A stretch of 54,971 nt of DNA. Source: Candidatus Daviesbacteria bacterium (GTDB lineage Bacteria > Patescibacteriota > Microgenomatia > Daviesbacterales > UBA10151). The position numbers and the translations under genes were made by a program. The stretch spans positions 1-54,971 of the forward strand of contig JAQUSJ010000003.1 in the NCBI GenBank assembly GCA_028715175.1. The letters are read 5' to 3'. This document shows, one piece after another, positions 21,151 to 49,365 of this stretch (position 1 is the first letter of the stretch; each line of letters opens with the position of its first letter). Below the pieces are notes generated by a model. It made no database searches, was not told where the DNA came from, and worked only from the letters and a program-made list of their open reading frames with translations.

Positions 21151-23400
21151 ATGAAAAGATTAGTGCTTGTAGACGGTAATGCCCTGCTTCATCGGGCATA
21201 TCATGCCACTCCTCCTTTTACTACTTCCAAGGGAGAGTTAGTTAATGCTGTTTTTGGCTTTTCTTCCATGATTTTAAAGGTTATTTCTGAACTTCATCCT
21301 GAGTATTTGGCTGTGGCCTGGGATGAAAAAGGGCCAACTTTCAGGCACCAGGCTTATACCCAATATAAAGCCACCCGGGGGCCTGCGGATGAAGGTTTAT
21401 CCAACCAATACAAAAGGGTTCATGAAGTAGTCCGGGCTTTTAATATTCCGGAATTTAAAGTTTCCGGGTACGAAGCAGATGATTTGATTGGGACTTTAGC
21501 TTTGCAGGCACAAAAAGAGAAGGATTTAGAAATTGTCATTGTGACGGGGGATCGGGATATCATGCAGCTTATTGATAAAAAGATTAAAGTATTTATGCCC
21601 AAAAAGACTCTTTCTGATGTGGGGCTTTATGGGGTAGAGGAGTTTATGGTTAAATACGGGTTTTTTCCTAAACAACTTACGGATTATAAGGGTTTGGCAG
21701 GAGATGCATCAGATAATATTCCCGGAGTAGCAGGGATTGGGGATGTTACAGCCACTAAATTAATTCACCAATTTGGTTCTATTGAAGAAATTTACAACCC
21801 TAAAAATTTAAAAACTCTTCCGGAAAGAACGCAAACACTGCTATCAGAAGGTGCAGAATCTGCGGTGATGAGTAAAAAATTGGCTATGCTAGACACAAAA
21901 GCACCTATCAAATTAAATCTTAAAGCTTGTGTAATGCATGATTTTGATAAGGAAAAGGTGGTTAAACTGTTTGAGGAATTAGAGTTTAAAAGTTTGATTG
22001 CCAGGTTACCCGAAGACGCTCGGGGTCCTGTCAGCTCGATATCCCGCCGTGCATCCTCGCTGGACGCTGCGGCTACGCGTCGGGATGCCCTTCTCGCTGC
22101 CACCCCTCGCGTGGCTACTTCTGACTTCGCCATCTCTCTTGATAACTTTGTTGCACCTATATTAGAAAAAATGTCTAAAACAGGTGTTTTAATAGATTTG
22201 AAGTTTTTAAGTAAGTTTGGTAAGGAACTAAAAGCTAAATTAGCCAAACTCGAAAAAGATATTTACTCAAAAGTGGGACATCAGTGTAATCTGAACAGCC
22301 CGAAACAATTATCGCAAGTGCTTTTTGATGAACTAAAATTACCGGTGGTCAGGAAAACTAAAACCGGCCGCTCAACCGATGAAGAGACTTTGCAAGAGTT
22401 ATCTTCCGCCCATCCTGTTGTGCCGTTCCTCCTCCAATACAGGCAGCTGTTTAAGCTGGTTTCAACATATATTGATAGCCTGCCAAAATTTGTTGGGCCG
22501 GATGGCAGAATCCACTCTACTTTTAATGTAGAGGGAGCTGCTACCGGCAGACTATCTTCAAAAGATCCTAATTTGCAAAACATTCCGGTTAAAGGTTCGG
22601 CAGGGGGAGAAATAAGGAAAGCGTTCGTGGCGCCCAAAGGCAAGATTTTATTGGGAGCTGATTATTCACAAATTGAGCTTAGAATAATGGCGCATCTGGC
22701 AGATGACCCGGGGCTAAAGAAAGCTTTTGAGCAAAGTTTGGATATCCACGGCGCCACTGCCTCAAGAATTTTTGGAGTACCAGTGGATAAAGTTACCAGG
22801 CAGCAGAGAATGGTAGCTAAAACCATGAATTTTGCCACGCTTTACGGGCAAGGCCCCCATGCTCTTTCCCGCCAGTTGGGAGTGAAATATGAGGTGGCGC
22901 GTCAATATATTGAAGAATATTTTGAGCAGTTTCCCAAAGTCAGGGAGTGGATGCAAAAAACTTTGGCTTTTGGTTATGAAAATGGTTACATTGAAACTTT
23001 ATGGGGGAGGAAAAGATATATTCCGGAGCTGCGAGCCGAAAATAGAATGATTAAATCAGCAGGTGAGCGGGCTGCTGTTAATCATCCTGTTCAAGGAACT
23101 GCCGCAGACATGATTAAAAAGGCAATGGTGGAAATAGAGAAAGAGCTATCAGCTATCAGCTATCAGCTGTCAGAAAGTCTGAAAGCTGACAAGTCGCCAA
23201 AGGCGACTGATACTGAAAGCTGCCGACTTATTCTCCAGGTTCATGATGAGCTACTTTTTGAATGCAACCCCAAACGTGTTAATGAAGTAGCAAGAATGGT
23301 CAAGGAGAAAATGGAGAATGCCTTAAAACTTTCTGTGCCGGTTTTGGTTGATCTAAAAACAGGGAAGAACTGGGGAGAAATGAAGCCCCTTAGAATTTGA
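21151..23400 (+). CDS. polA: DNA polymerase I: 5'-nuclease plus polymerase domains, no 3'-5' exonuclease domain
   Basis: The N-terminus LVDGNALLHRAYHA and GDASDNIPGV mark the 5'-nuclease. RLSSKDPNLQNIP, ADYSQIELRI and LQVHDELLFE are polymerase motifs A to C. Two repeat-derived inserts are present. Confidence 0.9.
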   Translation: MKRLVLVDGNALLHRAYHATPPFTTSKGELVNAVFGFSSMILKVISELHPEYLAVAWDEKGPTFRHQAYTQYKATRGPADEGLSNQYKRVHEVVRAFNIPEFKVSGYEADDLIGTLALQAQKEKDLEIVIVTGDRDIMQLIDKKIKVFMPKKTLSDVGLYGVEEFMVKYGFFPKQLTDYKGLAGDASDNIPGVAGIGDVTATKLIHQFGSIEEIYNPKNLKTLPERTQTLLSEGAESAVMSKKLAMLDTKAPIKLNLKACVMHDFDKEKVVKLFEELEFKSLIARLPEDARGPVSSISRRASSLDAAATRRDALLAATPRVATSDFAISLDNFVAPILEKMSKTGVLIDLKFLSKFGKELKAKLAKLEKDIYSKVGHQCNLNSPKQLSQVLFDELKLPVVRKTKTGRSTDEETLQELSSAHPVVPFLLQYRQLFKLVSTYIDSLPKFVGPDGRIHSTFNVEGAATGRLSSKDPNLQNIPVKGSAGGEIRKAFVAPKGKILLGADYSQIELRIMAHLADDPGLKKAFEQSLDIHGATASRIFGVPVDKVTRQQRMVAKTMNFATLYGQGPHALSRQLGVKYEVARQYIEEYFEQFPKVREWMQKTLAFGYENGYIETLWGRKRYIPELRAENRMIKSAGERAAVNHPVQGTAADMIKKAMVEIEKELSAISYQLSESLKADKSPKATDTESCRLILQVHDELLFECNPKRVNEVARMVKEKMENALKLSVPVLVDLKTGKNWGEMKPLRI

Positions 23401-23473: not shown

Positions 23474-23836
23474 ATGATTCAGAGCTTCAAAGATTTAGAG
23501 GTTTATCAAGAAAGCTATGAATTAGCAATTACTGTAAATAAACTTTGTATAAAACTTCCGATTTATGAGAAAAATGATTTAGCTTCACAATTAAGGCGTG
23601 CCTCAAAATCTGCACCTGCCAATGTTGCCGAAGGTTGGGCGAAAAGAAGATTTGAAAAAGAATTCAAAAAGCATCTCGATTGCGCAATTGGATCAGCTAA
23701 TGAGATGGAGGTGCATTTAAATATGGCAAAAGATTTAGGTTATCTGAATCAGGTAATTTGTGATGAGCTTATTAGTAGATATATTGCTTTAGGCGGGAAA
23801 CTAACCAATCTTAGAAATAATTGGAAAACTTATTAG
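23474..23836 (+). CDS. Four-helix-bundle protein (23S rRNA intervening-sequence protein family)
   Basis: FKDLEVYQESYELA, LRRASKSAPANVAEG and GSANEMEVHL are characteristic of the IVS/four-helix-bundle family. The protein is 120 aa. Confidence 0.8.
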   Translation: MIQSFKDLEVYQESYELAITVNKLCIKLPIYEKNDLASQLRRASKSAPANVAEGWAKRRFEKEFKKHLDCAIGSANEMEVHLNMAKDLGYLNQVICDELISRYIALGGKLTNLRNNWKTY

Positions 23837-26683: not shown

Positions 26684-26764
26684 ACTTTTGTCTTCAAGAG
26701 AGGGGTTTTAAAACCCCTCTCTTGGGACAGAGAATGCAGAGATTTAGTTAGTGAGGTAGTCAAG

Positions 26765-28969
26765 ATGAATAAAAAAAATTTAATTATTATTTTAAGAAAA
26801 AGTTTAATCTTTACGCTGTTATTGTTTCTTTGTTTTAGTAACTTTTATCAACAAGTCTATGCAGAGGATTTTTCTAATTCCACTAATTCTGCAGAATTAG
26901 CAGTAGAACCAGCGGTCACTGCGACTGACCAGGGATCTTCTGAGACCAGTGTTGATAATAATACTACTTTAGAAAATAGCATTGATCAGACAGCAGATAC
27001 AGGTAATAATACGATAAATCCCACTCCTGAGCCTACTCTTGAGCCTACTCCTCAGGCTGCTGAGTTAGCCGGTTCAACCCCGGAGCCAAGTTCTTCCTCC
27101 GAGCCTTTGGATTCTACTGAAACCGAACCGCCAGCCGATGTAACAAACAGCGCAGAAGTAGAAAATAATGTTTCAACTTCTGCTGAAACAGGCCAAAATA
27201 GTATTCTGGCTTCAGAAGACTCGCAAGCTCCAGAAGAAGCCACTCATGCTGCGCAAATCAATACCGGAGATGCTATTTCCGTAGTGGAGGCGGAAAATAA
27301 TGTCAATTCAACCGAGGTAAACTCTACTGCCATAAACCAAACCTTAAATATCTTTGTATCGGAAGATGTAAATTTGGCAGTTTTACCGTATATAATCGCC
27401 GAAGCAGTCTTTGCCCAAAATACTCAACATGATCAAGTGATTAATGTGGGCGTATTTAATGGCAACAATTATGCCTATTTATCCAATGATATTGTTTCAC
27501 TGGCTAGTAGCGGAGCAAATTCAGTTTCTGGCACAGAACAGGCCACCATTAAAACCGGTGATGCTTACTCTGTGGTGTCACTGGTTAATAAAGTCAATAC
27601 CACCTTTGTGGATTCGGTCATTCATATTGTGACCATTAATATTTTTGGCACTGTTAATGGCAATATAATTCTGCCGGAGTTTACTTTAGAGAAAGGGAAA
27701 GATGGTCAAATTAGTTACGTCGAAAATGTGGCTTTAGTAGAAAATAATGTTTCCTCAGAGGCAACCAGCGGCCAGAATCAGATTATCTCAGCAGAAGGAG
27801 GCACCATCACCACCGGTGATAGCCAAAGTGTGGTTAATGTAGTAAATTTTGTCAATGCCAATATTATTGGCGCGCTCTTTCACTATCTTTTTATAAACAA
27901 CTTCGGCCTTTGGAATGGTGATTTCCTGGGTTGGGATGGAATTGCGCAGTCAGAAGGAGGTGGTAATTTCCAATTGAGTTCGGTACAGGTGGGGCAGGAT
28001 TGCCAAACTACTTGTTATAGTGATATTAATTTATCAAACCAAGCTTACGTTATGAATAATATTTTCTCTACTGCCAACAGCGGAGGAAATTATATTGGAG
28101 GGGAGTGGGGCTCTATTACCACCGGTAACTCTTATAGCGCTATTTCTCTTTTGAATTTTATTAACACCAATATTATCCGTTCCATCGGCTTTTTCGGATT
28201 TATCAATATTTTTGGAATCTGGAATGGAGATATTGGCGGGAGCAGCGAATTTGCCGACAATCAGGAAACTTCTCTACCAGATCAAATCAGCGCTCAAGAG
28301 GGTAATAGCTCAGATGAAAATAAAGATAGCAGCGAACAAATCCAGCAATCAGGTGGTTTACTCGAGGTTGAGGCCAAAAATGATGCCGGAACATATTATC
28401 CAGGAGACACAATTACTTTCTTTGTTAAAGTCCAAAATCCTGGGACAGGAAAAGTTTACAACACCAAGACCCAAATTATGCTGATAAAAGACGGAGTTGA
28501 GATGGGAGGAGCTCTTTTTGAGATGGGAGATATTGAGGCAGGCAGAGGCATAATGCTAACAACCGGACTGGTGTTATCCAGTAATGCTCCGGCAGGAGTA
28601 TATACTGCCAGAGTAATGGTCTTAGGCTATGTTGGCCCGGATAACAAACAAATTTCCAATTATAAAGATCTTACTTTTGTAATAGCTCAACCAGTTATTT
28701 TATCTCAGTTTTCCACAGATGTGATGGGATTTGTACAACAGGTAAATGGGGCAGAAGATTTAGCCGGGCCAGCAGCTCAGGCAGGAGGAGGTATACAGGA
28801 TATGATGAAATTACTTTTATTTGCTTCTCTTCTATCCTATGCTTCGATTAGAAGTGTTAGAGAAAGAAAAAAACTGACTTTAGCTTTTTCCCAGAGTAAA
28901 ACATTTCTAGCTAAAAAGTCAGCGGCGCTTGGGTCATTTTTCTTCAGTCATTTCCCGCCTTTCTTTTAG
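26765..28969 (+). CDS. Large secreted/anchored repeat protein of the same repeat family, with a C-terminal TM anchor
   Basis: Signal peptide. Four modules of the type I(N/K/T)TGD(A/S)xSVVxxxNxVN...INxFGxWNGD. A PT-rich linker. An Ig-like segment GDTITFFVKVQNPGTG...AGVYTARV. A C-terminal hydrophobic segment. Confidence 0.7.
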   Translation: MNKKNLIIILRKSLIFTLLLFLCFSNFYQQVYAEDFSNSTNSAELAVEPAVTATDQGSSETSVDNNTTLENSIDQTADTGNNTINPTPEPTLEPTPQAAELAGSTPEPSSSSEPLDSTETEPPADVTNSAEVENNVSTSAETGQNSILASEDSQAPEEATHAAQINTGDAISVVEAENNVNSTEVNSTAINQTLNIFVSEDVNLAVLPYIIAEAVFAQNTQHDQVINVGVFNGNNYAYLSNDIVSLASSGANSVSGTEQATIKTGDAYSVVSLVNKVNTTFVDSVIHIVTINIFGTVNGNIILPEFTLEKGKDGQISYVENVALVENNVSSEATSGQNQIISAEGGTITTGDSQSVVNVVNFVNANIIGALFHYLFINNFGLWNGDFLGWDGIAQSEGGGNFQLSSVQVGQDCQTTCYSDINLSNQAYVMNNIFSTANSGGNYIGGEWGSITTGNSYSAISLLNFINTNIIRSIGFFGFINIFGIWNGDIGGSSEFADNQETSLPDQISAQEGNSSDENKDSSEQIQQSGGLLEVEAKNDAGTYYPGDTITFFVKVQNPGTGKVYNTKTQIMLIKDGVEMGGALFEMGDIEAGRGIMLTTGLVLSSNAPAGVYTARVMVLGYVGPDNKQISNYKDLTFVIAQPVILSQFSTDVMGFVQQVNGAEDLAGPAAQAGGGIQDMMKLLLFASLLSYASIRSVRERKKLTLAFSQSKTFLAKKSAALGSFFFSHFPPFF

Positions 28970-28988: not shown

Positions 28989-30224
28989 ATGAAAGCGGCC
29001 CTTGTTCATGATTATTTAAAAGAATATGGCGGGGCAGAAAGAGTCCTGGAGGTTTTACATGAGATTTTCCCGGATGCTCCTGTTTATACTGCCTATTACA
29101 ATCCTGAAAGCCTGGGAGAAAACGGTAAAAGATTTAATCCGCCAGCTGGCGGATGGGATATCAGGACTTCCTGGTTTCAAAAATTCCCTTTTGCCAACCG
29201 GTTACTTTCCCCATTCCGCATATTTGGGCCAATGATGTTTGAAAGTTTTGATCTTTCAGAATATGATTTGGTGATTTCTTCCTCATCAGCTACTCATTTG
29301 GCCAAAGCAGTGATTACCAAACCGGAGACTTTGCATATAAGTTACATTCACACACCACCCAGGTTTTTATATGGTTATGTCACCTCTTTTAACTACAAAA
29401 AACACTGGTGGACCAGAATTGGGGGAGAAATAATAAATCACTTTATGAGGATCTATGATTTTGAAGTTTCCCAGAGGCCGGATATTTTGGTAGCTAATTC
29501 CAGGAATGTCCAGGCCAGAATAAAGAAATTTTATCGCAGAGACAGTGTGGTTATTTACCCGCCGGTAGATGTAGCAGCGATCAGTCGTCAGTCGTCAGTC
29601 GTCAGACAATCTGAAAGCAGAAAGCTGAAGGCTGATAGCTATTATCTCGTTTTAAGTAGATTAGTAAGAGGAAAGGGAGTGGAGGTAGTGGTAGAGGCTT
29701 GTGGCAAATTAGGATTACCGCTAAAGGTAGCTGGTACAGGCCCTGAATTGAATAATCTTAAAGATCTTGCTACCAACTACCCGCTTCGCAGTGAGGCGAG
29801 CCAGCTACCAGCTACCAATTTTCTAGGTTGGGTGACAGATGAAGAAAGGGTGAAGCTATTATCAAATGCCAAAGCTTTGATTGTGGCATCAGAAGATGAG
29901 GATTTTGGTATTACTTCAATTGAGGCTCAAGCTGTAGGGACTCCGGTGATCGCTCCTGCCTCCGGAGGTTTCTTGGAAACAGTAATTGATGGCCCGCCTA
30001 CGCATAAAACTTCGGCAGGGCAAGGTAAAACCGGTATTTTGTATGGCGGAGCGGGAATGGTCAATGTTGAGAATTTAGTCGGGGCATTGCAAAAATTTGA
30101 TGCTTCTAAATTTGATCCAGAGGACTGTCGCATGAATGCTGAAAGATTCTCTAAAGAAAGATTTAAAAAAGAAATTTTGGAATTGGTAGAAAAGAATTTG
30201 ACAATAGCGGGTAGTATAGGATAG
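28989..30224 (+). CDS. Glycosyltransferase family 4 (GT-B)
   Basis: EDEDFGITSIEAQAVGTPVIA is the E-x7-E motif. It contains three repeat-derived inserts. Confidence 0.8.
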   Translation: MKAALVHDYLKEYGGAERVLEVLHEIFPDAPVYTAYYNPESLGENGKRFNPPAGGWDIRTSWFQKFPFANRLLSPFRIFGPMMFESFDLSEYDLVISSSSATHLAKAVITKPETLHISYIHTPPRFLYGYVTSFNYKKHWWTRIGGEIINHFMRIYDFEVSQRPDILVANSRNVQARIKKFYRRDSVVIYPPVDVAAISRQSSVVRQSESRKLKADSYYLVLSRLVRGKGVEVVVEACGKLGLPLKVAGTGPELNNLKDLATNYPLRSEASQLPATNFLGWVTDEERVKLLSNAKALIVASEDEDFGITSIEAQAVGTPVIAPASGGFLETVIDGPPTHKTSAGQGKTGILYGGAGMVNVENLVGALQKFDASKFDPEDCRMNAERFSKERFKKEILELVEKNLTIAGSIG

Positions 30225-30241
30225 TTTTAGATATACTCTTT

Positions 30242-31255
30242 ATGGTCAAGGTTAGAGATCATATTACCCGCGCCACGGAACTGACTGCACTTTCTGTTTG
30301 GAGATTGATACAGGAAAAAGGCTTTACTCCCCAAGATATTTTGGATGAAGAAGAAAATATAAAAAGAGAAAAACTGATTGATCAAACAGGAGCAGATGCC
30401 ATGTCTGCTTCTTTAACAGATATACCCTTTATTTTGGAGGTAGTGGGGTCTGAAGGCAGGAAACATGTTCACCAATACGGAGAAGCTCTGGCAGCTTTGG
30501 AGGGAACTTTTGGTTCGCCATCTAGCGAATTAAAGCTAGACATGGTTAATGATGTGGTAGAAGGAAGTAAAGCTGCCAAGCTAAATTCTCCTGGTGCGGT
30601 TTCTGTGATAGCAGTTTCCTCTCACAAGGGTTTAATGCCAACTCCTTCAGATATTGATTATATGGATAAATTGTTTGGTCCGCCACAGCTTCTTGGCAAA
30701 ATCTCAATTGACAGACCAATAGAGGAAAATCTGGCAGAGGTGGTAGATGTGTTTAAAGTGGAGCCCCATGAGATTAATGTGGTGGTAATGGACCGTGACA
30801 GAAATGCCCATTTAATCAATGCTTGCCAAAAATTTGGAGTGAATTTAATTCTGATTAAAGCAGGAGATTTTTTGCCTTCTATTTTATCCTGCATGAATCC
30901 CAAAAAAGATTCCGGACAAGCCAGAACGACCAAGGGGATACATTTAGTTATGGGTATTGGCGGGTTTGAGGAGGGGGTTTTGGCAGCTGTGGCTGCCAAA
31001 GCTTTAGGTGCGGTAGGAGAAGGTAGGGGTTGGTCCGGCGACAGCCGGATTGCCAGAAAATACCAACAAGTCTGGACCACGGATGAGTTGGTGGCTGGTA
31101 AAAAGGAAGACTGTCTGGTATCAGTTTCTTTTATCACCGGAGATAACAAATGGTTTAATCTGCCTGGGGTGGTAGAAAAAGATGGAGGACACCAAGTCAC
31201 CACCTTGACAGTTGATAAAAGTGGTGTGAATATAAATACTAAAATTCACCACTGA
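30242..31255 (+). CDS. glpX: Fructose-1,6-bisphosphatase class II (GlpX-like)
   Basis: TRATELTALSVWR, NDVVEGS (equivalent to DPxDGT), YMDKL and GIGGFEEGVLAAVAAKALG. Divergent from the canonical family. Confidence 0.65.
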   Translation: MVKVRDHITRATELTALSVWRLIQEKGFTPQDILDEEENIKREKLIDQTGADAMSASLTDIPFILEVVGSEGRKHVHQYGEALAALEGTFGSPSSELKLDMVNDVVEGSKAAKLNSPGAVSVIAVSSHKGLMPTPSDIDYMDKLFGPPQLLGKISIDRPIEENLAEVVDVFKVEPHEINVVVMDRDRNAHLINACQKFGVNLILIKAGDFLPSILSCMNPKKDSGQARTTKGIHLVMGIGGFEEGVLAAVAAKALGAVGEGRGWSGDSRIARKYQQVWTTDELVAGKKEDCLVSVSFITGDNKWFNLPGVVEKDGGHQVTTLTVDKSGVNINTKIHH

Positions 31256-31263
31256 GAAAAAAA

Positions 31264-32265
31264 ATGGATATCAATACACTAAAACAAACAGCTTCTGCTA
31301 TGGTTGCCCCGGGAAAGGGGATACTGGCAGCTGATGAATCAAGCAAAACTATCCAAAAAAGGTTTGATAAAATCGGCGTTTCTTCAAATCCGGAAACCAA
31401 TCTATCTTACAGACAGATGCTTTTTACCACTCCCGGGATAGAGGAGTGTATCTCAGGGGTGATTTTATATGATGAAACAATCAGGCAATCAATTGATGGT
31501 GTGAGTGTTCCAAAATATCTGGAAAGCAAAGGAATTATTCCGGGGATAAAAGTGGATAAGGGAGTAAAAGAGATCCCTAATTTTCCTGGAGAAAAAATGA
31601 CTGAAGGGTTGGACGGTTTAAGAGAGCGGTTAACAGAATATAAAAACTTAGGTGCAAGATTTGCCAAATGGAGAGTAGTTTATACAATAGGTAACGGGAT
31701 GCCCTCAGAGGCTTGTATTTTGGCAAATGCCCACTCCTTGGCTTTATATGCCGGCCTTTGCCAGGAGGCTGATTTGGTGCCAATTGTAGAGCCGGAAGTT
31801 TTAATGGATGGGGGGCATGATTTAAAAAGATGCCAAGAAGTGACTGTACAAGTATTAAAAATTGTTTACGAGCAGTTGAAACTTTACAAAGTAGAACTTT
31901 CCGGGACTCTTTTAAAGCCCAATATGGTGATTTCCGGAAAAGAAAGCCCGACTCAGGCAAGTGCAAATGAGATTGCCAAGGTTACCATTGACACATTCAA
32001 AGAAGTGGTACCAAAAGAGGTGCCGGGGATTGTCTTTTTGTCCGGAGGTCAAACACCGGATCAGGCTACAGAAAATTTGGCTGCCATAAATAGAATTGGT
32101 CCGGCATCTGCCGGATGGCAGCTGTCTTTTTCATACGGTAGAGCCTTGCAGGAAGAAGCACTCAAAACTTGGGCAGGAAAATCGGAAAATATAGCAGCTG
32201 CCCAGCAGGTATTCCTGGAAAGAGCTAAAAAGGTCTCCGCAGCCCGTTCAGTAAAACCGACTTAA
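31264..32265 (+). CDS. fba: Fructose-bisphosphate aldolase, class I
   Basis: GKGILAADES, LLKPNMV (Schiff-base Lys region), and LSGGQ. Confidence 0.9.
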   Translation: MDINTLKQTASAMVAPGKGILAADESSKTIQKRFDKIGVSSNPETNLSYRQMLFTTPGIEECISGVILYDETIRQSIDGVSVPKYLESKGIIPGIKVDKGVKEIPNFPGEKMTEGLDGLRERLTEYKNLGARFAKWRVVYTIGNGMPSEACILANAHSLALYAGLCQEADLVPIVEPEVLMDGGHDLKRCQEVTVQVLKIVYEQLKLYKVELSGTLLKPNMVISGKESPTQASANEIAKVTIDTFKEVVPKEVPGIVFLSGGQTPDQATENLAAINRIGPASAGWQLSFSYGRALQEEALKTWAGKSENIAAAQQVFLERAKKVSAARSVKPT

Positions 32266-34956: not shown

Positions 34957-35901
34957 ATGCCAGAGTTACCAGAAGTGGAAACTATAAAGTTAGGGTTAGA
35001 GAAGAGAATTATTGGGTTAAAAATCCAAAAAATCCAGATTTTATCCCCAAAATCTTTTATTGGAAATCCTAATTTAGCCCAGGGTCAAATTGTACTCAAA
35101 ATCTGGAGAAAAGGTAAGATATTAGGAGTGGATCTGAGTAGCTGTCAGTCTTCAGCTATCAGCTATCAGACTAAAAGCAAAAAAAGTCTGACGACTGACG
35201 ACCGACAGCTGACGACTATTCTATTTCATCTAAAAATGACAGGTCAATTAATATATGAAGACGGCAAGAGAATGATAGGTGGTCATCCGACAGAGGATAT
35301 GTTAGGCAAGATGCCAAATCCACATACCAGGGTAATTTTTTCTTTTTCCGATGGGTCGCATTTGTATTTTAATGACCAGAGGAAGTTTGGTTGGGTAAGA
35401 GTTAGTGATAAGCAAAGCTTGCGATCTGTCGATCTTAGGGGAAAAGTGACAAGTGACAAGTTATTTAAAAATTTAGGGCCGGAGCCACTGGAGAAAGAAT
35501 TTACGTGGCAAGCACTAAAACAGAACCTTTTAAAACACCGTCGTATGCCTGTGAAAGTGGCGATTATGGATCAATCTGTGCTTTCCGGCGTGGGCAATAT
35601 CTATTCTAATGAGGCCTGTTTCAATGCTAAAATTGATCCGCGCAAAAAAGTGGGAGATATGAAAGATAGGGAATTTAAGGCACTACACGATGGGATAATT
35701 AAAGCACTCAAGGATGGGATAGCGCACGGAGGTTCAACCAGAGCACATTTTGTGGATCCTGAAGGGCATAAGGGTTATTTTTTGGATTATGCCAAGGTTT
35801 ATGGTAAAGGAGGTTATCTTTGCCAAGGCTGCAAAGGTAAAGTCAAAAAAATTACTCTGGGAGGCCGCGGCACATATTTTTGCCCCAAATGCCAAAAATG
35901 A
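34957..35901 (+). CDS. mutM: Formamidopyrimidine-DNA glycosylase
   Basis: N-terminal MPELPEVE, an H2TH region, and a C-terminal zinc finger CQGCKGKVKKITLGGRGTYFCPKCQ. A repeat insert lies at 35137-35218. Confidence 0.9.
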   Translation: MPELPEVETIKLGLEKRIIGLKIQKIQILSPKSFIGNPNLAQGQIVLKIWRKGKILGVDLSSCQSSAISYQTKSKKSLTTDDRQLTTILFHLKMTGQLIYEDGKRMIGGHPTEDMLGKMPNPHTRVIFSFSDGSHLYFNDQRKFGWVRVSDKQSLRSVDLRGKVTSDKLFKNLGPEPLEKEFTWQALKQNLLKHRRMPVKVAIMDQSVLSGVGNIYSNEACFNAKIDPRKKVGDMKDREFKALHDGIIKALKDGIAHGGSTRAHFVDPEGHKGYFLDYAKVYGKGGYLCQGCKGKVKKITLGGRGTYFCPKCQK

Positions 35902-35944
35902 GTGTAGTATAATGGACTTTGGCCCGCCAAAGGCGGGCAGATTT

Positions 35945-37449: not shown

Positions 37450-38586
37450 ATGTTTTTAAAAAGATTAAATTTAACTAATTTTAGAAATTATTCAACGCTC
37501 GAGGTAAACTTTGACCAAAGACCGACCATTTTGCTTGGTAACAACGCTGTCGGGAAATCCAATCTTTTGGAGGCAATTTATCTTCTTTCCACTGCTAAGT
37601 CGCTGCGCGTGGAAACAGAAGATGAATTGATAAAAAAAGAGGAGGAATTTACCAAGATCGAGGGGTTTTTGGTGGATAGTCCGTCAGCCCATTCGGGTCT
37701 GAGCCCCTCAGGGTTGAAGACTGGCGGAGATATTGAACTTTTGGTGATTATCAACAAACCCACTAGGGACGTGCTTTTTAGAAAGAAAGTTTTGGTTAAT
37801 GGGATCGGGAGGAGAATTGTGGATTTTATTGGAAATCTTCCGGCAGTTATTTTTTATCCAGCTGATATCAATTTGGTAACCGGCCCTCCCAGTCTTAGGA
37901 GATGGCATCTGGATTTGGCGCTGGCCCAAATTGACCCGGAATATGAGCACAGCTCTAACCTCGCTTCGCTCAGTTATAAAAAAGCTTTAACTTTGTACGA
38001 ACAATTCCTGACTGCTAGGAATAGAGTATTAAAGCGTATTAGAGAAGGGTTCGGAAAGCCAAACGAATTAGATTACTGGACAGAAGAGTTGGTAAAACTG
38101 GCCAAAGTAATAAGTGACAAGAGAAAAGTTTTTTTTGAGTTTATAAATGCTTTGGAAAGACCATTAGGAGAATTTATGTTTGAATACAAGCCAAGCGAGA
38201 TGAGTGTTGACAGATTACTTGAGACAAACGGTAGGGAGGTAGCTGCAGCTGCAACATTAATTGGTCCGCACAGGGATGATTTTGATATTGTCACATCAGG
38301 TAGAAACCTTCGCCGTTTTGGCTCCCGGGGCGAACAAAGAATAGCCACTTTGGCTTTTAAACTTTTACAACTGGAATATATGGCCTTTAGTTTAGGCAAA
38401 AGACCAATACTGCTTTTGGATGATGTTTTTTCCGAACTAGATGCTCCTCACAGGGCTCATGTGGTGGGGGTAGTCAGTAAACAGCAAACAATTATTGCTA
38501 CAGTGGACCTGGAAAACATCCCAAAAGATTTTTTAGATTCTGCCAGGATTTTGAGAGTAGAGGATGGCCACGTTCATGTAAACTGA
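37450..38586 (+). CDS. recF: DNA replication and repair protein RecF
   Basis: LNLTNFRNY and Walker A GNNAVGKSNLLEA, the SMC-like signature GSRGEQR, and Walker B LLLDDVFSELD. Confidence 0.9.
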   Translation: MFLKRLNLTNFRNYSTLEVNFDQRPTILLGNNAVGKSNLLEAIYLLSTAKSLRVETEDELIKKEEEFTKIEGFLVDSPSAHSGLSPSGLKTGGDIELLVIINKPTRDVLFRKKVLVNGIGRRIVDFIGNLPAVIFYPADINLVTGPPSLRRWHLDLALAQIDPEYEHSSNLASLSYKKALTLYEQFLTARNRVLKRIREGFGKPNELDYWTEELVKLAKVISDKRKVFFEFINALERPLGEFMFEYKPSEMSVDRLLETNGREVAAAATLIGPHRDDFDIVTSGRNLRRFGSRGEQRIATLAFKLLQLEYMAFSLGKRPILLLDDVFSELDAPHRAHVVGVVSKQQTIIATVDLENIPKDFLDSARILRVEDGHVHVN

Positions 38587-38924: not shown

Positions 38925-39989
38925 ATGGCAAACATTAAACTTCCAGGGTTAATTGATCCTCATGTACACCTTCGTGAGCCTGGTGCTATCCAAAAAGAAG
39001 ATTTCCAGACAGGCACCAAGGCAGCCATTGCCGGTGGTTTTACCATGATATTAGATATGCCGAATAATCCGATTGCCACCATATCCCCTCAAGCTTTACA
39101 GGAAAAAATCAAGCTGGCAAAAGACAGAATCTTTTGCGACGTTGGATTTCATTTTGGAGCGAGCAAAGAAAGTATTCAATATTTTCCAAAGATAAAAAAT
39201 AAAGTTTGGGGCTTGAAAGTTTATATGAATCTGACCACCGGAGATTTACTGATGGAAGACGATAAGATCTTAGAAAGTGTTTTTTCCTCCTGGCCAAAAA
39301 ATCCGCCAGCTGGTGGACCAATCATAGTTCATGCAGAAGGGGATACTCTTGGGAAAGCTATTGCTTTGGCGAAAAAATTTGGAAATCAGTTACATGTTGC
39401 TCATGTATCGCTGAAGCGTGAAATAGAACAAATCAAAGTTGTCAAGAGAGAAGGCATGAATATTACCTGTGAAGTTACACCTCACCATTTGTTTTTATCA
39501 GAAGAAGATTTGGGGAGGTTAGGGCCATATGGGATGATGAAACCTCCTTTGGAAAGCAAAGATAATCAAGCAGCCCTTTGGCAAGCACTAATTGATGGTA
39601 CCATTGATATGATCGGTTCTGACCATGCACCACACACCAAAGAAGAAAAACAAGGTGAAAAACCTGTGTATGGTGTGCCAGGACTGGAAACCACTCTGCC
39701 TTTACTTCTGACTGCAGTAAACGATGGTCGGCTCACCATAGAAAGAATGATAGAGCTGACTTATACTAATCCCAGAAAAGTTTTTGACTTACCGGAGCAA
39801 AAAGACACTTTCGTGGAGGTAGATTTAGGAGAAAGTTATGTCATTGAGGAGAATAACTTGCAAACAAAATGCGGCTGGAGTCCATTTACAGGAATGAAAG
39901 TTAAAGGAAAAGTTAAAAAAGTAGTTTTAAGAGGACAACTGATTTTTGATGGCCAAAATATCTTTGGCCCGTATGGTCAAATCTTGTAG
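38925..39989 (+). CDS. pyrC: Dihydroorotase (short form)
   Basis: PGLIDPHVHLREPG, HVAHVS and GSDHAPH are the metal ligands. Confidence 0.8.
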   Translation: MANIKLPGLIDPHVHLREPGAIQKEDFQTGTKAAIAGGFTMILDMPNNPIATISPQALQEKIKLAKDRIFCDVGFHFGASKESIQYFPKIKNKVWGLKVYMNLTTGDLLMEDDKILESVFSSWPKNPPAGGPIIVHAEGDTLGKAIALAKKFGNQLHVAHVSLKREIEQIKVVKREGMNITCEVTPHHLFLSEEDLGRLGPYGMMKPPLESKDNQAALWQALIDGTIDMIGSDHAPHTKEEKQGEKPVYGVPGLETTLPLLLTAVNDGRLTIERMIELTYTNPRKVFDLPEQKDTFVEVDLGESYVIEENNLQTKCGWSPFTGMKVKGKVKKVVLRGQLIFDGQNIFGPYGQIL

Positions 39990-40076: not shown

Positions 40077-40100
40077 ATCCGCCAGAGGGCGGATTTTTTT
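40077..40100 (+). terminator. Intrinsic terminator
   Basis: ATCCGCC and GGCGGAT form the stem with loop AGAG, followed by a T7 run. Confidence 0.8.
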
Positions 40101-40165
40101 AAAAAAGATTCTGGACAAGTCCTTCGATCCCGAGGTACTCAGGACCGAGGGGCCAGAATGACATT

Positions 40166-41111: not shown

Positions 41112-42218
41112 ATGATGGGGAGACTGGTTCTGTCCGATGGGACAGTTTTTTTAGGGGAAAGTTTCGGGAAAGAGGATACCACCTCAGGGGAGGTGGTTTT
41201 TAATACCGGAATGGCAGGCTACCCCGAATCTCTGACAGACCCATCTTATTTCGGGCAAATTCTGGTTTTAACCTACCCCTTGCAAGGCAATTATGGGGTT
41301 CCGGAGAGTAAGTTTTGGGAATCAGGGAAAATTCAGGTTAAGGGACTAATTGTCCAAAATTATATTGATCACCCATCACATTTTGAAAGCCGGAAAACTT
41401 TGGGAGATTGGCTTAAGGAACAAGGAATACCTGCTATACAAGGAATTGATACCAGAGAGCTGACCAGGAAGTTAAGGGAACATGGAGTGATGTTGGGGAA
41501 GATAGTCGTCAGCTATCAGCCATCAGTCGTCAGAGAAGACATAATTGGGATTTATGATCCTAACAAAGAAAATATTTTGCCTTATGTAAGTACTAAGAAA
41601 GTTGAAGTCTATGGTGAAGGCAGAAAAAATATAGTTCTAATTGATTGTGGAGCAAAGGAAAATATTATCAGGAGTTTAGTAAAGAGAGGCGTAAGAGTGA
41701 CAAGAGTGCCTTGGGACTTTAATCCGCTGACATCAAAAATAGATTCTTCGCTAGTCGCTCAGAATGACAGGGGGGGTGGGCTGGATTTTGACGGAGTGCT
41801 GGTTTCAAATGGGCCGGGTGATCCGAAACAGGCAAAGGATACTATAAAAATTGTCAAACAGCTTCTAGAAGCAAATATTCCGACATTTGGTATTTGTTTA
41901 GGCAGCCAGATTTTAGCGTTAGCTGCAGGCGGAGAAACCTACAAATTAAAATTTGGCCACAGAGGTCAAAATCAGCCAGTCATGGACCAATTTAATAAAA
42001 AGGCTGTGATAACCAGTCAGAATCACGGATTTGCAGTTGATATGAAATCAATGGATAAAGATTGGAAGGAATGGTTTGTTAACTTAAACGACGGGACAAA
42101 TGAAGGAATCAGGCATAAAAGTAAACCGTTTTTGGCAGTGCAGTTTCACCCGGAGGCAAACCCGGGTCCGATTGAGGGAGGATATTTGTTTGATGAGTTT
42201 CTAAAATATGTCAAATAA
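41112..42218 (+). CDS. carA: Carbamoyl-phosphate synthase small (glutaminase) subunit
   Basis: The N-terminus LSDGTVFLGESFG, the GATase triad region FGICLGSQ, and QFHPE. Confidence 0.9.
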   Translation: MMGRLVLSDGTVFLGESFGKEDTTSGEVVFNTGMAGYPESLTDPSYFGQILVLTYPLQGNYGVPESKFWESGKIQVKGLIVQNYIDHPSHFESRKTLGDWLKEQGIPAIQGIDTRELTRKLREHGVMLGKIVVSYQPSVVREDIIGIYDPNKENILPYVSTKKVEVYGEGRKNIVLIDCGAKENIIRSLVKRGVRVTRVPWDFNPLTSKIDSSLVAQNDRGGGLDFDGVLVSNGPGDPKQAKDTIKIVKQLLEANIPTFGICLGSQILALAAGGETYKLKFGHRGQNQPVMDQFNKKAVITSQNHGFAVDMKSMDKDWKEWFVNLNDGTNEGIRHKSKPFLAVQFHPEANPGPIEGGYLFDEFLKYVK

Positions 42219-45200: not shown

Positions 45201-45489
45201 TTTAAGCAAGCATGCTATTAAAAATATCCGGGTCTATAAAATTTCGGAAAGAAAAACGCCTTCTGTTTTAGACCTTCTTAAAGACGGTAAGATCGATCTG
45301 GTGATAAATATATCTGAATCAAGATCAAACCAGGGCGAAACTGCAGGATATCTTATCAGAAGAAACTGTGTGGATTTGGGGATTCCCTTGATAACCAATG
45401 TGCAGGCAGCAGAACTCTTGGTTTCTGCTCTTTCTTCTAAAAAAATGGAAGATTTGGAAATTAAAAGTTGGGATGAATATGTTGGGTAA
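42208..45489 (+). CDS. carB: Carbamoyl-phosphate synthase large subunit
   Basis: 1093 aa with duplicated ATP-grasp halves, an N-terminus [24 protein letters not shown], and an MGS-like C-terminus. Confidence 0.95.
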   Translation: [1093 protein letters not shown]

Positions 45490-45523
45490 TTAGATTTTTT
45501 GCGGGAAAAATGCGATAATCAAA

Positions 45524-45609
45524 ATAGCTATCAGTCATCAGTCATCAGTCTTCAGCTATCAGACTTAAAATTAAAGTCTGACGACTGAAAGCTGACAGCT
45601 GATAGCTAT
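45524..45609. repeat. Prototype heptamer-palindrome element (intergenic copy)
   Basis: ATAGCTATCAGTCATCAGTCATCAGTCTTCAGCTATCAGACT, then loop TAAAATTAA, then AGTCTGACGACTGAAAGCTGACAGCTGATAGCTAT. The arms are built from CAGCTAT/CAGTCRT 7-mers. Confidence 0.85.
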
Positions 45610-45613
45610 AATC

Positions 45614-46702
45614 ATGTTTATCCCTAAGTATACAATTACAAATAAAATACTGAAGGATATCGGCGTAGTTGAGGCCAGCCGTGAGATTATAATGAATGCC
45701 CCTTTAGTTCCGGCCTGGGAGGCAAAGTTTAGAAAAGAGGCGGTGGAAAGGACAATTCATCATGGCACTCATTTGGAAGGAAATCAGTTATCCCCGGAGG
45801 AAGTTAGAGATGTTCTTGAAGGAGAAGAGGTTGTAGCAAGAGATAGAGATGTACAGGAGGTTATTAATTACAGAAATGTCTTAAAATTTATTGACGGAAT
45901 TTATATCCAGATTGGTCCGCCAGCTGGTGGGTTAGGCAGCTACAATTTCACTATTGAAACAATACTGGAAATGCATAAACTTACCACCGAGAAAATTTTA
46001 CCTCCAGAAACTTCGGGGCAATTTAGAATCAGGCAGGTGATTGTTAAAAATACCAAAACAGGGCAAATTTCCTATACTCCGCCTCCGGCTCCCGAAGTAC
46101 CATATCTGGTGGAAGATTTAGTTAACTGGATCAATTCGGACGAGGGGAAGGCAATTCATCCGATTATCAAAGCCGGAATCATCCATTATGAGCTGGCCAG
46201 GATTCACCCGTTTGTAGACGGGAATGGCAGGGTAGCCAGAGCTGTTGCCACCCTCATTTTATTTTTAGATGGTTATGATATCAGGAAGTTCTTCTCTTTT
46301 GAAGAATATTTTGATGAGAGCCCAATGCAGTACTACTTAACGCTGCAAGCTGTATCAAACCAGCTCGTACTAGATACTCATGAGCGGGATTTGACTCCAT
46401 GGCTGGAGTATTTTACCGAAGGAGTAGCGATAGAACTCAATCAGGTTAAAGAAAAAGTACAACGGATTTCCGTGGATGCCAGGATTAAGGATAAACTGGG
46501 GGAGCAGTTGATGTTAAATGAGCGGCAAATGATGATTATGGAGTATATTCACCGGCATAAGGGTTTGTCCAATAAAGATTTTAGAAAAATTTTTCCGGAC
46601 TTTTCAGATGATACGGTCTTGCGGGAACTTAAATTCCTGCGGCAAAAGGGTTTGGTTAAAAAATCTGGCGGTACCAAAAAAGCTATGTATGTTTTAAAGT
46701 AA
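45614..46702 (+). CDS. Fic family protein with a C-terminal winged-helix domain
   Basis: The Fic motif is HPFVDGNGRVARA. There is a C-terminal HTH-like segment. Confidence 0.85.
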   Translation: MFIPKYTITNKILKDIGVVEASREIIMNAPLVPAWEAKFRKEAVERTIHHGTHLEGNQLSPEEVRDVLEGEEVVARDRDVQEVINYRNVLKFIDGIYIQIGPPAGGLGSYNFTIETILEMHKLTTEKILPPETSGQFRIRQVIVKNTKTGQISYTPPPAPEVPYLVEDLVNWINSDEGKAIHPIIKAGIIHYELARIHPFVDGNGRVARAVATLILFLDGYDIRKFFSFEEYFDESPMQYYLTLQAVSNQLVLDTHERDLTPWLEYFTEGVAIELNQVKEKVQRISVDARIKDKLGEQLMLNERQMMIMEYIHRHKGLSNKDFRKIFPDFSDDTVLRELKFLRQKGLVKKSGGTKKAMYVLK

Positions 46703-47595: not shown

Positions 47596-49365
47596 ATGCT
47601 ATTTTCTAAATTAGCGGAATACTTTGAAAAATTGGAACAAACTTCTTCCAGACTTACTTTAATTGATATTCTCTGTGATTTATTTAAAGAAGTAAAAGCA
47701 GAGGAGGTTAGTAAAGTTTGCTATTTAATCCAGGGTCGAGTGGCTCCTTTTTATGAACCGATAGAGATCGGCATGGCAGAGCGTACAGTTGCTGCCAGCA
47801 TAGCCCGGGCATATGGAGTGAAGCGGGAAGACGTTCTTGAGGAATATGGTAAGGTTGGTGATTTAGGGTTGGTGGCAGAGCAGATGACCATTTGTCATTC
47901 TGGTAAGCGAAGCGCATCCATAATCGATTCTGGACAAGCCAGAATGACAGTTGCAGAGGTTTTTAAGACATTAAAAGAAATTGCTCAAATTTCAGGGGTT
48001 GGGACTGTGGAGAAAAAACAAGGTCTGTTGGTAGGTCTTTTGCAAAAAGTAGATTCTGTTTCAGCTAAACATCTGGTCAGAATTCCCCTCGGGGTATCAA
48101 GACTCGGGATTGGGGACCCGACAATTTTGGATGCTTTTGCCAAATTAAAATTGGGGGATAGATCCAAACGTAAACTTTTGGAAGGGGCATATAACCGGGT
48201 TTCTGATTTAGGTTTGATTGGGGAAACTTTATGGAAAGGTGGACTTGTCGCGGTTGAAAAACTGCAAGTCCGGGTGGGAAGACCAATACGGTCCCAGCTT
48301 GCAGAAAGGTTGCCAAACCCGGAAAAAGTCATAGAAAAAATGGGCGAGGTGAATGTACAAAGAAAGCTGGACGGATTCCGTGTTCAAATCCACAAAGATG
48401 GAGAAGCAGTCAGGCTTTTTTCGCGGAATTTGGAGGAAACAACAGCAATGTTTCCGGAGATTGTAGAAGGGACTACGGTGCAGATTAAAGCCAAAACTGC
48501 AATCTTAGACTGTGAGGCAATTGGTTTTAACCCTTTGTCTGATGAATTTTTGCCTTTTCAGGAAACTACCCAAAGACGTAGAAAATACGGCATTTCTGAA
48601 ATGGCAAAAAAGATCCCCCTGAAAGCTTTTTGTTTTGATATTTTGTATAAAAATAACAAATCTCTGATTAATTTACCTCTTCACGAAAGACTAAAAGAGC
48701 TGGAAAGTATTGCCAAACAGGACGACACGATTATTATTGAAAAGGGCGAAACTGTAAAAGACGGAAAAAAACTGCAAATACTTTTGGATGATGCTATTTC
48801 CAAAGGTTTGGAAGGGGTTGTTTGCAAAAGACTGGATTCAAAATATGAGGCAGGGGCCAGAAATTTTAACTGGGTTAAACTGAAGAGACATTCTGCAGGG
48901 GAGCTAGAGGATACCATTGACTGCGTGATTTTAGGTTACATTTTTGGCAAGGGAAAAAGATCCGGGTTCGGGGCCGGGTCTTTGCTTGTGGGTGTTTACG
49001 ATGAGTCGCAAGATGAATTTGTGACAGTTTCCAAAATTGGCACCGGTTTAACAGATGAGGAATGGAGAGAAATACACAAAAGAGCGGATAAAATTAAGGT
49101 TTTGCACAAACCTGCCAGGGTGAATTCTCTTTTGACCCCCAGTGTTTGGATTGAACCCTCGATTGTGATTGAAGTTTTGGCAGATGAGATTACCCGTTCT
49201 CCTGTACATACTGCCGGAAAAAAGGGTCCGCCAGCTGGCGGAGAACCTGGCTATGCCCTAAGATTTCCCCGGCTGGTGAAATTCCGCGAAGCTGACAAAA
49301 AAGCAGAGGATGCCACAACAGTGAAAGAGTTGATTGAGATGTATAAACAGCAGTTTAAAAAGTAA
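47596..49365 (+). CDS. lig: ATP-dependent DNA ligase (three-domain, archaeal/eukaryotic Lig1-like)
   Basis: Motif I is KLDGFRVQIH, with the adenylated Lys. Also present are EGVVCK, NWVKLK, and an OB domain with LRFPRLVKFR. Confidence 0.9.
   Translation: MLFSKLAEYFEKLEQTSSRLTLIDILCDLFKEVKAEEVSKVCYLIQGRVAPFYEPIEIGMAERTVAASIARAYGVKREDVLEEYGKVGDLGLVAEQMTICHSGKRSASIIDSGQARMTVAEVFKTLKEIAQISGVGTVEKKQGLLVGLLQKVDSVSAKHLVRIPLGVSRLGIGDPTILDAFAKLKLGDRSKRKLLEGAYNRVSDLGLIGETLWKGGLVAVEKLQVRVGRPIRSQLAERLPNPEKVIEKMGEVNVQRKLDGFRVQIHKDGEAVRLFSRNLEETTAMFPEIVEGTTVQIKAKTAILDCEAIGFNPLSDEFLPFQETTQRRRKYGISEMAKKIPLKAFCFDILYKNNKSLINLPLHERLKELESIAKQDDTIIIEKGETVKDGKKLQILLDDAISKGLEGVVCKRLDSKYEAGARNFNWVKLKRHSAGELEDTIDCVILGYIFGKGKRSGFGAGSLLVGVYDESQDEFVTVSKIGTGLTDEEWREIHKRADKIKVLHKPARVNSLLTPSVWIEPSIVIEVLADEITRSPVHTAGKKGPPAGGEPGYALRFPRLVKFREADKKAEDATTVKELIEMYKQQFKK

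Follow-up and report, generated by a model that had tools for sequence, protein, structure and literature searches.

A family of very short, GC-rich hairpin palindromes, TCCGSC-N4-GSCGGA, of which the 16-mer TCCGCCAGCTGGCGGA is the most frequent, is apparently invasive in the AT-rich genomes of Candidatus Daviesbacteria and, as it seems, in many other AT-rich uncultured genomes too. We describe the 16-mer from a 54,971-nt stretch of a Candidatus Daviesbacteria bacterium (contig JAQUSJ010000003.1 of assembly GCA_028715175.1), of which the whole length, with about 40% GC, is called the window below. The window holds four copies inside four unrelated protein-coding genes, for a GT4 glycosyltransferase, a PyrC-like amidohydrolase, a Fic protein and an ATP-dependent DNA ligase (Table 1), and at each of these sites orthologues in related genomes are without four codons, or about 12 nt. 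The element is very probably real and of insertional origin.

Four copies of the 14-nt core CCGCCAGCTGGYGG start at positions 29139, 39303, 45917 and 49228 of the window, where none is expected, and the core is absent from all 100 of 100 dinucleotide-preserving shuffles of the window. When up to two mismatches are allowed, the sole extra match is found at 40079, within the hairpin ATCCGCC-AGAG-GGCGGAT. The original prediction, made from the letters of the window, that four near-identical 14-mers are read in frame as PPAGG and do not occur by chance was borne out at all four positions. The real repeated unit is the 16-mer, which grows to an 18-nt perfect palindrome at the GT4 site. The GC content of the motif is about 75 to 80% (75% for the 16-nt unit) versus about 40% for the window. 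All four copies lie in plus-strand open reading frames (ORFs) and in the phase CCG CCA GCT GGY GG. A longer repeat surrounding the 16-mer was ruled out: the aligned flanks of the four copies show no conservation outside it, and the only flank signal across copies is a one-sided T at +1. The accompanying claim that TC or a close variant precedes each copy was wrong, the preceding base being T and the preceding two bases AT, AT, GT and GT. When folded as DNA, the perfect copies form hairpins with z-scores between -2 and -3, and the two T-variant copies fold weakly.

Comparison with relatives used the following material. The closest relatives of the CarB-like protein of the window (42208-45489), 92% and 75 to 82% identical, come from metagenome-assembled genomes labelled Candidatus Daviesbacteria, Microgenomates or Patescibacteria, some with other automatic labels; gene order is kept between them and the window, and the GT4 and ligase orthologues bear the same organism names. 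The nearest relative (L001/L206, JAQTPP010000008) has about 85% nucleotide identity to the window. The Daviesbacteria sequence covered amounts to about 0.4 Mb (373 kb for the stem counts below), taken as loci rather than whole genomes, and public sequencing runs were compared as assembled contigs. The source sample is a landfill metagenome, and independently built Logan contigs of the source run match the region with no differences. The window carries arginine, pyrimidine, glycolytic, replication and repair genes.

The four window copies, and seven more copies in relatives, are absent from the orthologous sites of other Daviesbacteria. The GT4 site shows a clean 12-nt gap relative to the nearest relative, with TTT GCT GGT TGG in L206 versus TTT AAT CCG CCA GCT GGC GGA TGG in the window; among 120 GT4 orthologues, 3 have the PPAG insert and 117 are without it, all but one of the latter reading KRF-xx-WDI. 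At the pyrC site the 12 nt are missing in all close relatives, including the nearest, and the stretch 39231-39327 is likewise shorter by 12 nt in a low-depth relative from run X2. The Fic copy is common to the window and L001 and corresponds to a 12-nt gap in nine other relatives. At the ligase site there is a 12-nt gap in eight loci and a larger gap in two more; PPAGG is found at the loop of the window protein in 5 of 120 ligase orthologues, others having a different insert, TSSASGEK, in the same place, which the alignment to the Sulfolobus ligase 2hiv puts in a variable loop. This ligase, of the ATP-dependent archaeal/eukaryotic type, is conserved across Daviesbacteria, and 2hiv is its best solved relative (E = 4e-121); a look-up of the window protein itself returned no record. 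The presence/absence polymorphism that orthologue alignments had been expected to reveal is therefore found, and among the options offered by the original prediction a mini-insertion element fits it best. Because relatives are without the insert at orthologous sites, PPAGG is not a conserved peptide that other genomes encode by non-palindromic DNA. The alignments show that the motif is an insertion and not conserved coding sequence.

Several copies are found in decayed form. The Fic copy has decayed at equal length to CCG CCG GTT AGC GAA in L002 and CCA GCG GTT GGC GGA in L005. In the ligase gene, a 93%-identical relative (run X2) has the copy unchanged, and an approximately 85%-identical one (run X4) carries it with C>T at 49231 and 49235. 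The glpX gene of the window contains a probable decayed relic (Table 1), at whose site L202/L203 read GGT CCG CCA TCT GGC GGA (TCCGCCATCTGGCGGA) and L204 reads GGT CCG CCC AAT GGC GGA, with L206 being 12 nt shorter than L202/L203. These alignments show inserted copies that are not conserved and seem to decay at about the neutral rate. An explanation with no DNA element at all, namely, protein-level convergence on a PPAGG loop, chance, or an artefact of assembly or sequencing, has hardly any probability left and is contradicted by the data: PPAGG makes a plausible flexible linker, but copies agree even at synonymous positions, two other frames are also used to read this DNA, the shuffles contain none, and copies occur in independent assemblies from different studies, with agreement of the Logan contigs.

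Insertion is recurrent. L011 carries the 16-mer at a second ligase site and at the recF site; L004 has three copies, at a second recF site, in a carA loop and at an intergenic site; and L006 and one Levybacteria locus also carry it at non-orthologous sites. One-mismatch forms are present at the glpX site of L202 (the sequence given above) and at the ABC-transporter site of L004 (TCCGCCAGCCGGCGGA). Copy number varies sharply among close relatives, from 3 in 23 kb in L004 to 0 in L005 and L007-L010. Orthologue comparison resolved the context of 12 independent Daviesbacteria sites, every one of which is coding; two further exact copies, at L004 7335 and L038 6753, span no long ORF. The 373 kb of Daviesbacteria DNA contain 29 matches to the pattern TCCG-N8-CGGA, with about 2 expected from our base-composition estimate, and 28 of the 29 have at least two of the four inner pairs complementary. 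The enrichment is specific to the family stems, with 20 TCCGCC..GGCGGA and 11 TCCGGC..GCCGGA in Daviesbacteria loci, compared to 0 to 5 for six other stems tried (TCCGAC 0, TCCGTC 0, TCGGCC 0, TCCCGC 5, ACCGCC 2, and TGGCGG 1), and with 2 and 0, respectively, in 1.2 Mb of other genomes.

The 16-mer also occurs outside these loci. A scan of public metagenome contigs returned at least 120 loci with the 16-mer, for which enrichment was judged by the GC distribution of the matches and not by their count. Of the 120 matches listed, 95 are in DNA of <50% GC; since chance matches to a 16-mer of 75% GC are expected mostly in high-GC DNA, this AT-rich predominance is not what chance would give. As a control, a viral collection scanned in full yielded 55 matches, mostly in high-GC contigs, as chance predicts. 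Among the matches listed, the AT-rich loci contain about 13 further exact or near copies in 549 kb, and host genes include those for SecA, TopA (at two different positions), RecG, SMC and PolA. Copies are spaced at about one every 11 kb in the window, one every 28 kb in Daviesbacteria loci and, with the anchoring copies subtracted, one every 42 kb in the listed metagenome loci. A literature search gave no match for the sequence, and among the results listed for in-frame palindromic insertions in Patescibacteria or the Candidate Phyla Radiation (CPR) none describes this element.

Could the 16-mer be a site that selection favours, such as an uptake signal, a parS/NBS-like site for a chromosome-organising protein, or a Chi-like signal? 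In favour are its over-representation and dispersal and its perfect palindromic form, which would suit a DNA-binding protein that acts as a dimer, and two window copies contain the Chi-like GCTGGTGG; GCTGGYGG is found 12 times versus 1.3 expected, yet 8 of the 12 are within the four palindromes. Uptake signals in other bacteria favour tolerated reading frames too, and cyanobacterial HIP1 (GCGATCGC) and DNA uptake sequences are likewise short, over-represented intragenic motifs with a preferred frame. However, HIP1 and uptake sequences are far denser, known uptake signals occurring about once per kb versus 1 per 11 to 40 kb here, and they are thought to spread mainly by substitution with biased retention, unlike the Daviesbacteria copies, which arise as inserted blocks of fixed form and not by point mutation. 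Copies are not conserved at the orthologous sites of relatives and they decay, many close relatives have 0 in about 23 kb, and the sister family described below and other hairpins occupy the same sites; for parS/NBS-like sites positional conservation would be expected, but the filled sites differ between relatives. A functional site is thus very improbable, and the proposal of an uptake signal or protein-binding site in the original prediction is poorly supported in view of the lineage-specific occurrence, the roughly neutral decay and a density of only about 1 per 10 to 40 kb.

Two further roles were considered and rejected. The core CAGCTG had been proposed as a PvuII-type restriction target, but CAGCTG is over-represented in the window rather than avoided (20 versus 9.3 expected), and no restriction or methylase gene is among the window ORFs scanned. 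Terminator function of the 16-mer was excluded by the frequency of T-rich tails, which follow 8 of 97 copies and equal the background of 8.5%; only the related hairpin at 40077-40094 qualifies. Four relatives have ATCCGCC-AATG-GGCGGAT in the same place, also just downstream of pyrC, and the hairpin at 40077-40094 probably works as a terminator and is not a mobile copy. It is one of two related hairpins that had been noticed 3' of genes, both of which were found there; the other, downstream of fpg, is conserved in the nearest relative.

Another question is why the copies share a reading frame. The PPAGG frame is used at 11 of the 12 independent Daviesbacteria coding sites, and among the listed metagenome ORF sites that could be assigned (n = 34) PPAGG is read at 19, RQLA at 8 and SASWR at 7. 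The availability of T|GGA (or TCC|A) in window ORFs predicts 26% PPAGG, 53% RQLA and 21% SASWR, from which the metagenome numbers deviate (p ~2e-4). Target availability alone was ruled out as the source of the bias, since xTG GAx is the commonest phase of TGGA and would favour RQLA. That copies are always read as PPAGG, as first claimed, is true of the window but not in general, since RQLA[DE] and SASWR readings, and copies not assigned to a long ORF, exist elsewhere. The related claim that only PPAGG is tolerated has to be softened: this reading is strongly favoured, but RQLA[DE] and SASWR are read within long ORFs too, among them those for SMC, PolA and a protein of the PMT family. The insertions lie in loops of variable length that accept other inserts as well, such as a 42-nt GC hairpin in GT4 and TSSASGEK in the ligase. 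The frame bias is best explained by selection after insertion, the small and flexible residues of PPAGG being better tolerated than RQLA[DE] or SASWR and thereby giving the copies their shared frame. GT4 loops in different genomes also contain further GC-rich hairpin inserts of 21, 33, 42 and 39 nt (Table 1), and the 42-nt hairpin of L201 (CTGCCTGCC...GGCAGGCAG) is exactly at the PPAG insert site of the window.

The family has more than one form. The sequence is xxT|CCG SCA NNN GSC|GGA at filled coding sites and, where the empty state is resolved best, xxT|GGN, with a glycine codon. The net gain is +12 nt at seven sites, +9 nt at the aldolase and recF in L011, +6 nt at the second recF site and carA in L004, with no net change elsewhere; in L006 the copy, read in the RQLAD frame, takes the place of a stretch of the same length, and this region is of constant length in eight relatives. 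No target duplication was seen at filled sites. A sister family, TCCGGCA-TC/GA-TGCCGGA, is represented in the window by a copy in the aldolase gene, which is an insert relative to L202/L203 and for which L206/L001 carry the flipped form TCCGGCAGATGCCGGA at the same site. The nearest relative has another sister-family copy at the ABC-transporter site, where the window has none. A joint swap of the paired positions 5 and 12 distinguishes L001 from L004 at the ABC-transporter site and L004 from L003 at the second recF site. The glpX gene carries a further sister-family stem, TCCGGCGACAGCCGGA, of uncertain origin; there is no length difference at this site relative to L206 or L204, and L202/L203 have unrelated sequence of equal length.

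The recF-like gene contains the longest form found, a 49-nt composite in which the palindrome is split at its centre. Here the split version reported earlier was recovered as TCCGTCAG, 33 nt forming an inner hairpin, and CTGGCGGA. At the same site L001 has undecayed arms (TCCGCCAG...CTGGCGGA), L011 has the plain 16-mer and six other relatives have neither. Such a form would be expected if the 16-mer were an excision footprint, that is, the joined terminal inverted repeats of a larger element CCGCCAG...CTGGCGG whose in-frame scars survive in genes, and a palindrome is also the expected product of joining two inverted termini. However, when TCCGCCAG...CTGGCGGA was sought at spacings of up to 400 nt in 2.2 Mb of loci, the only genuine case was the 33-nt recF form, which is merely a hairpin, and other half-pairings were chance pairs in high-GC DNA or neighbouring copies. 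No target is duplicated, and footprints would vary, but the copies are identical. We regard this origin as very improbable, slightly more so than a functional site.

How can so short a sequence multiply? One answer is dedicated transposition, in which a non-autonomous mini-hairpin with a 12-nt payload between T and GGA is moved in trans by a hairpin-recognising enzyme; candidates are a Y1/HUH transposase, of the IS200/IS605 type or the RAYT type associated with repetitive extragenic palindromes (REPs), or another nuclease-ligase. The 16-mer at many unrelated sites in many lineages fits this answer, as do the junction xxT|...|GGA, constant at all coding sites examined, the modal gain of +12 nt at seven sites, the contrast in copy number between L004 and its relatives, and the folding of perfect palindromes as DNA hairpins. 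Against it, no transposase was found among the 45 window ORFs scanned against Pfam, nor was a restriction enzyme, methylase or reverse transcriptase, and there are no target duplications and no GTAG-type guide heads. The equal-length, +6 and +9 cases are also unfavourable. To our knowledge a 12-nt payload is shorter than any known transposase substrate, and IS200/IS605 chemistry needs separate left and right ends, which such a payload lacks. Transposition of this kind is a serious rival, though rather unlikely.

We favour, with confidence no better than evenly divided, a mini-hairpin family that is invasive, spreading as short templated patches that insert or replace sequence, and that is filtered by the loop peptides that proteins tolerate. 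New copies appear as short patches, mostly of net +12 nt, and some replace existing sequence (+9, +6 or 0); the insert would be CCGCCAGCTGGC, placed between T and GGN. Copies would be templated from other copies by a non-reciprocal short-patch process: at a replication fork or repair gap, a single-stranded copy would be anchored through short matches at its ends, either T/GG..GGA or the TCCG/CGGA termini of a copy already present. This would be akin to short-patch double illegitimate recombination or to gene conversion anchored by microhomology; stable hairpins may prolong the life of the single strands, a dedicated enzyme would not be required though one may take part, and surviving copies would be those that add a multiple of 3 nt in a permissive loop. 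For the specific copying mechanism our confidence is lower, and we put it forward tentatively.

Variable net length, equal-length replacement and the lack of target duplication or a conserved flank argue for patch templating over classical transposition, and so do the 12-nt payload and the lack of transposase, restriction and methyltransferase genes among the scanned window ORFs. Family swaps at the same site and the flipped aldolase copy come naturally if an existing copy is a good target and either strand can anneal. T/GG..GGA ends, a candidate microhomology, are common to filled and empty sites, the empty alleles being those of diverged genomes. Short-patch double illegitimate recombination, which produces microindels templated by ectopic single strands, is reported as a rare, sequence-unspecific mutation process in Acinetobacter (bioRxiv 10.1101/2023.11.22.568220), and it would resemble the present case in its patches of variable length, its microhomology anchors and the absence of an element-encoded enzyme.

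Several points weigh against patch templating. No copying step was observed, and no filled/empty allele pair with identical flanks was found in the public-run contigs or in relatives; the empty alleles are from genomes 15 to 30% diverged, which makes the precise junction and T|GGN as its target a matter of inference. The variable net lengths could have come from +12 insertions and later ordinary indels in the variable loops, and the constant junction and the identical 16-mer across AT-rich lineages would fit a sequence-specific enzyme equally well or better. Short-patch double illegitimate recombination is very rare where measured and is not known to amplify one particular sequence. Finally, the comparison covers about 0.4 Mb of Daviesbacteria sequence and not whole genomes, and the metagenome enrichment rests on the GC distribution of at least 120 matches, not on their number.

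Among known systems, Rickettsia palindromic elements (RPEs) are similar in several respects, being palindromic in-frame inserts in unrelated housekeeping genes of a small AT-rich bacterial genome, with presence/absence polymorphism between related species, surface peptide segments added to proteins and no known transposase of their own. RPEs are about 100 to 150 bp long and have a family consensus. The Daviesbacteria unit, in contrast, is 16 nt with a 12-nt payload and a longest form of 49 nt, a comparison made by length and not by the RPE consensus sequence; the host belongs to the CPR and not to Rickettsia, and equal-length replacements and flipped copies occur here. [quoted passage not shown] REPs are extragenic, imperfect and 20 to 40 nt long, with a GTAG head, unlike the perfect 16-mer, which is intragenic at 12 of 12 resolved sites and has no GTAG head; REPs also co-occur with a RAYT gene, and no such gene is among the window ORFs scanned against Pfam. 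MITEs are at least 50 bp long with terminal repeats and target duplications, but here no duplication is seen, and the 2.2 Mb of loci searched hold no longer element with these ends.

The palindromic GC clusters of yeast and other AT-rich mitochondria, such as GC42, are sporadic, belong to several families, merge with one another and have a debated mode of amplification, for which cut-and-paste, RNA-mediated and recombination routes have been discussed (PMC4478555). Repetitive hairpin-forming elements are also reported for sponge mitochondria (PMC2800124). Like the Daviesbacteria family, GC clusters are GC-rich hairpins in AT-rich DNA with rapid turnover and several families, which merge or nest, as in the recF composite, and occasionally insert into genes. 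They differ in being organellar, mostly intergenic and typically 30 to 50 nt or longer, with putative AG/TAG target duplications; the Daviesbacteria element is bordered by T and GGA with no repeat, and the analogy is one of behaviour only. By analogy, the family may be viewed as an invasive palindromic mini-element with an unusually small unit, whose closest counterparts are RPEs and mitochondrial GC clusters.

Table 1. Coordinates of the palindromes, their host ORFs and other hairpins (window positions unless a locus is named).
Feature	Sequence	Position	Strand	Context
Copy 1	ATCCGCCAGCTGGCGGAT	29137..29154	.	18-nt perfect palindrome in GT4 glycosyltransferase gene, read N-PPAGG-W
Copy 2	TCCGCCAGCTGGTGGA	39302..39317	.	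pyrC-like amidohydrolase gene, read N-PPAGG-P
Copy 3	TCCGCCAGCTGGTGGG	45916..45931	.	Fic gene, read G-PPAGG-L
Copy 4	TCCGCCAGCTGGCGGA	49227..49242	.	ATP-dependent DNA ligase gene, read G-PPAGG-E
Host ORF of copy 1		28989-30224	+	GT4 glycosyltransferase (Pfam)
Host ORF of copy 2		38925-39989	+	Amidohydrolase / dihydroorotase-like (Pfam)
Host ORF of copy 3		45614-46702	+	Fic (Pfam)
Host ORF of copy 4		47596-49365	+	ATP-dependent DNA ligase (Pfam)
Sister-family copy	TCCGGCATCTGCCGGA	32100..32115	.	Class-I aldolase gene, read G-PASA-G
Sister-family stem	TCCGGCGACAGCCGGA	31034..31049	.	In glpX; origin uncertain
Composite copy	TCCGTCAG + 33-nt inner hairpin + CTGGCGGA	37680..37728	.	recF-like gene, read SPSAHSGLSPSGLKTGG
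Probable decayed relic	GGT TCG CCA TCT AGC GAA	30512..30529	.	glpX gene
Terminator-like hairpin	ATCCGCC-AGAG-GGCGGAT then TTTTTT	40077..40094	+	Downstream of pyrC, same stem as family
Related hairpin	GCCCGCCAAAGGCGGGC	35922-35938		Downstream of fpg
TCAG-unit hairpins	TCAG(C/T)(T/C)(A/G) units	23144-23215, 29578-29640, 35137-35222, 41500-41535, 45523-45610		
GT4 hairpin inserts		29780-29800, 29991-30021; L201 10154-10195; L204 2575-2613		GT4 loops
71-nt fpg hairpin	GCCTGCC...GGCAGGC	L001 3675-3745 / L206 16562-16632		Nearest relative; corresponds to window 35887

Other hairpin repeats are present nearby. A second repeat family consists of hairpins built of 7-nt units TCAG(C/T)(T/C)(A/G), with complementary units as the other arm, which are found in frame in PolA, GT4, Fpg and carA and as one 88-nt intergenic copy upstream of fic; a 54-nt PolA copy and a 76-nt intergenic copy, with folding z-scores of -5.5 and -6.7, are absent from the nearest relative. 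Another small motif that forms a hairpin, TTCTGGACAAGCCAGAA, has copies between pyrC and pyrB and within the ligase gene (40109-40165 and 47928-47946), and in the loop of its intergenic copy is nested a 33-nt GC-rich hairpin that the nearest relative does not have. The nearest relative in turn carries a 71-nt GC-rich hairpin at the fpg 3' end that is not in the window. Of 12 indels between the window and the nearest relative, 6 have a folding z-score of -2 or lower; as only about half are hairpin-like, no general rule of hairpin indels is claimed. A 30-nt perfect palindrome, CAAGAGAGGGGTTTTAAAACCCCTCTCTTG, lies at 26695-26724, just upstream of a 734-aa ORF with no Pfam match (26765-28969). L165, an AT-rich metagenome contig with two exact 16-mers, has a repeated intergenic module of about 120 to 150 nt (3430-3574, 4796-4914 and 6723-6872), in which one slot for a hairpin is filled by CCTGAATC..GATTCAGG twice and by TCCGGCAGCTGCCGGA in the remaining copy. 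Elsewhere in the window, a scan for known RNA families found only a T-box leader (RF00230, 104 bits) at 175-389, upstream of the argininosuccinate synthase gene (427-1650), and an ORF at 23474-23836, directly after polA and in the same position in L202/L203, encodes a protein of the "23S rRNA intervening sequence protein" family (PF05635).

In its boldest form, which we put forward only tentatively, the proposal is that Daviesbacteria, and probably many AT-rich uncultured bacteria, host active, undescribed mobile DNA. Its 12-nt payload would form a 16-nt palindrome together with the flanking bases, enter at T|GGN, for the most part in glycine codons, with the help of an enzyme specific to hairpins or by self-templating, and continually add PPAGG-type loops to essential proteins, which would make it the smallest bacterial mobile element known. 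If confirmed, this means that a sequence of 12 to 16 nt can act as invasive bacterial DNA, well below the size of REPs, MITEs and RPEs. The multiplication of GC hairpins in AT-rich genomes is a question decades old from mitochondrial GC clusters, for which the family offers a clean system, with hundreds of sequenced close relatives and with filled, empty, decayed, flipped and nested alleles in well-understood housekeeping genes. Presence or absence of an insert could serve as a strain-level marker, and inserts can mislead alignment, gene calling and structure prediction. For the biology of the group, the inserts account for part of the lineage-specific loop insertions in CPR proteins.

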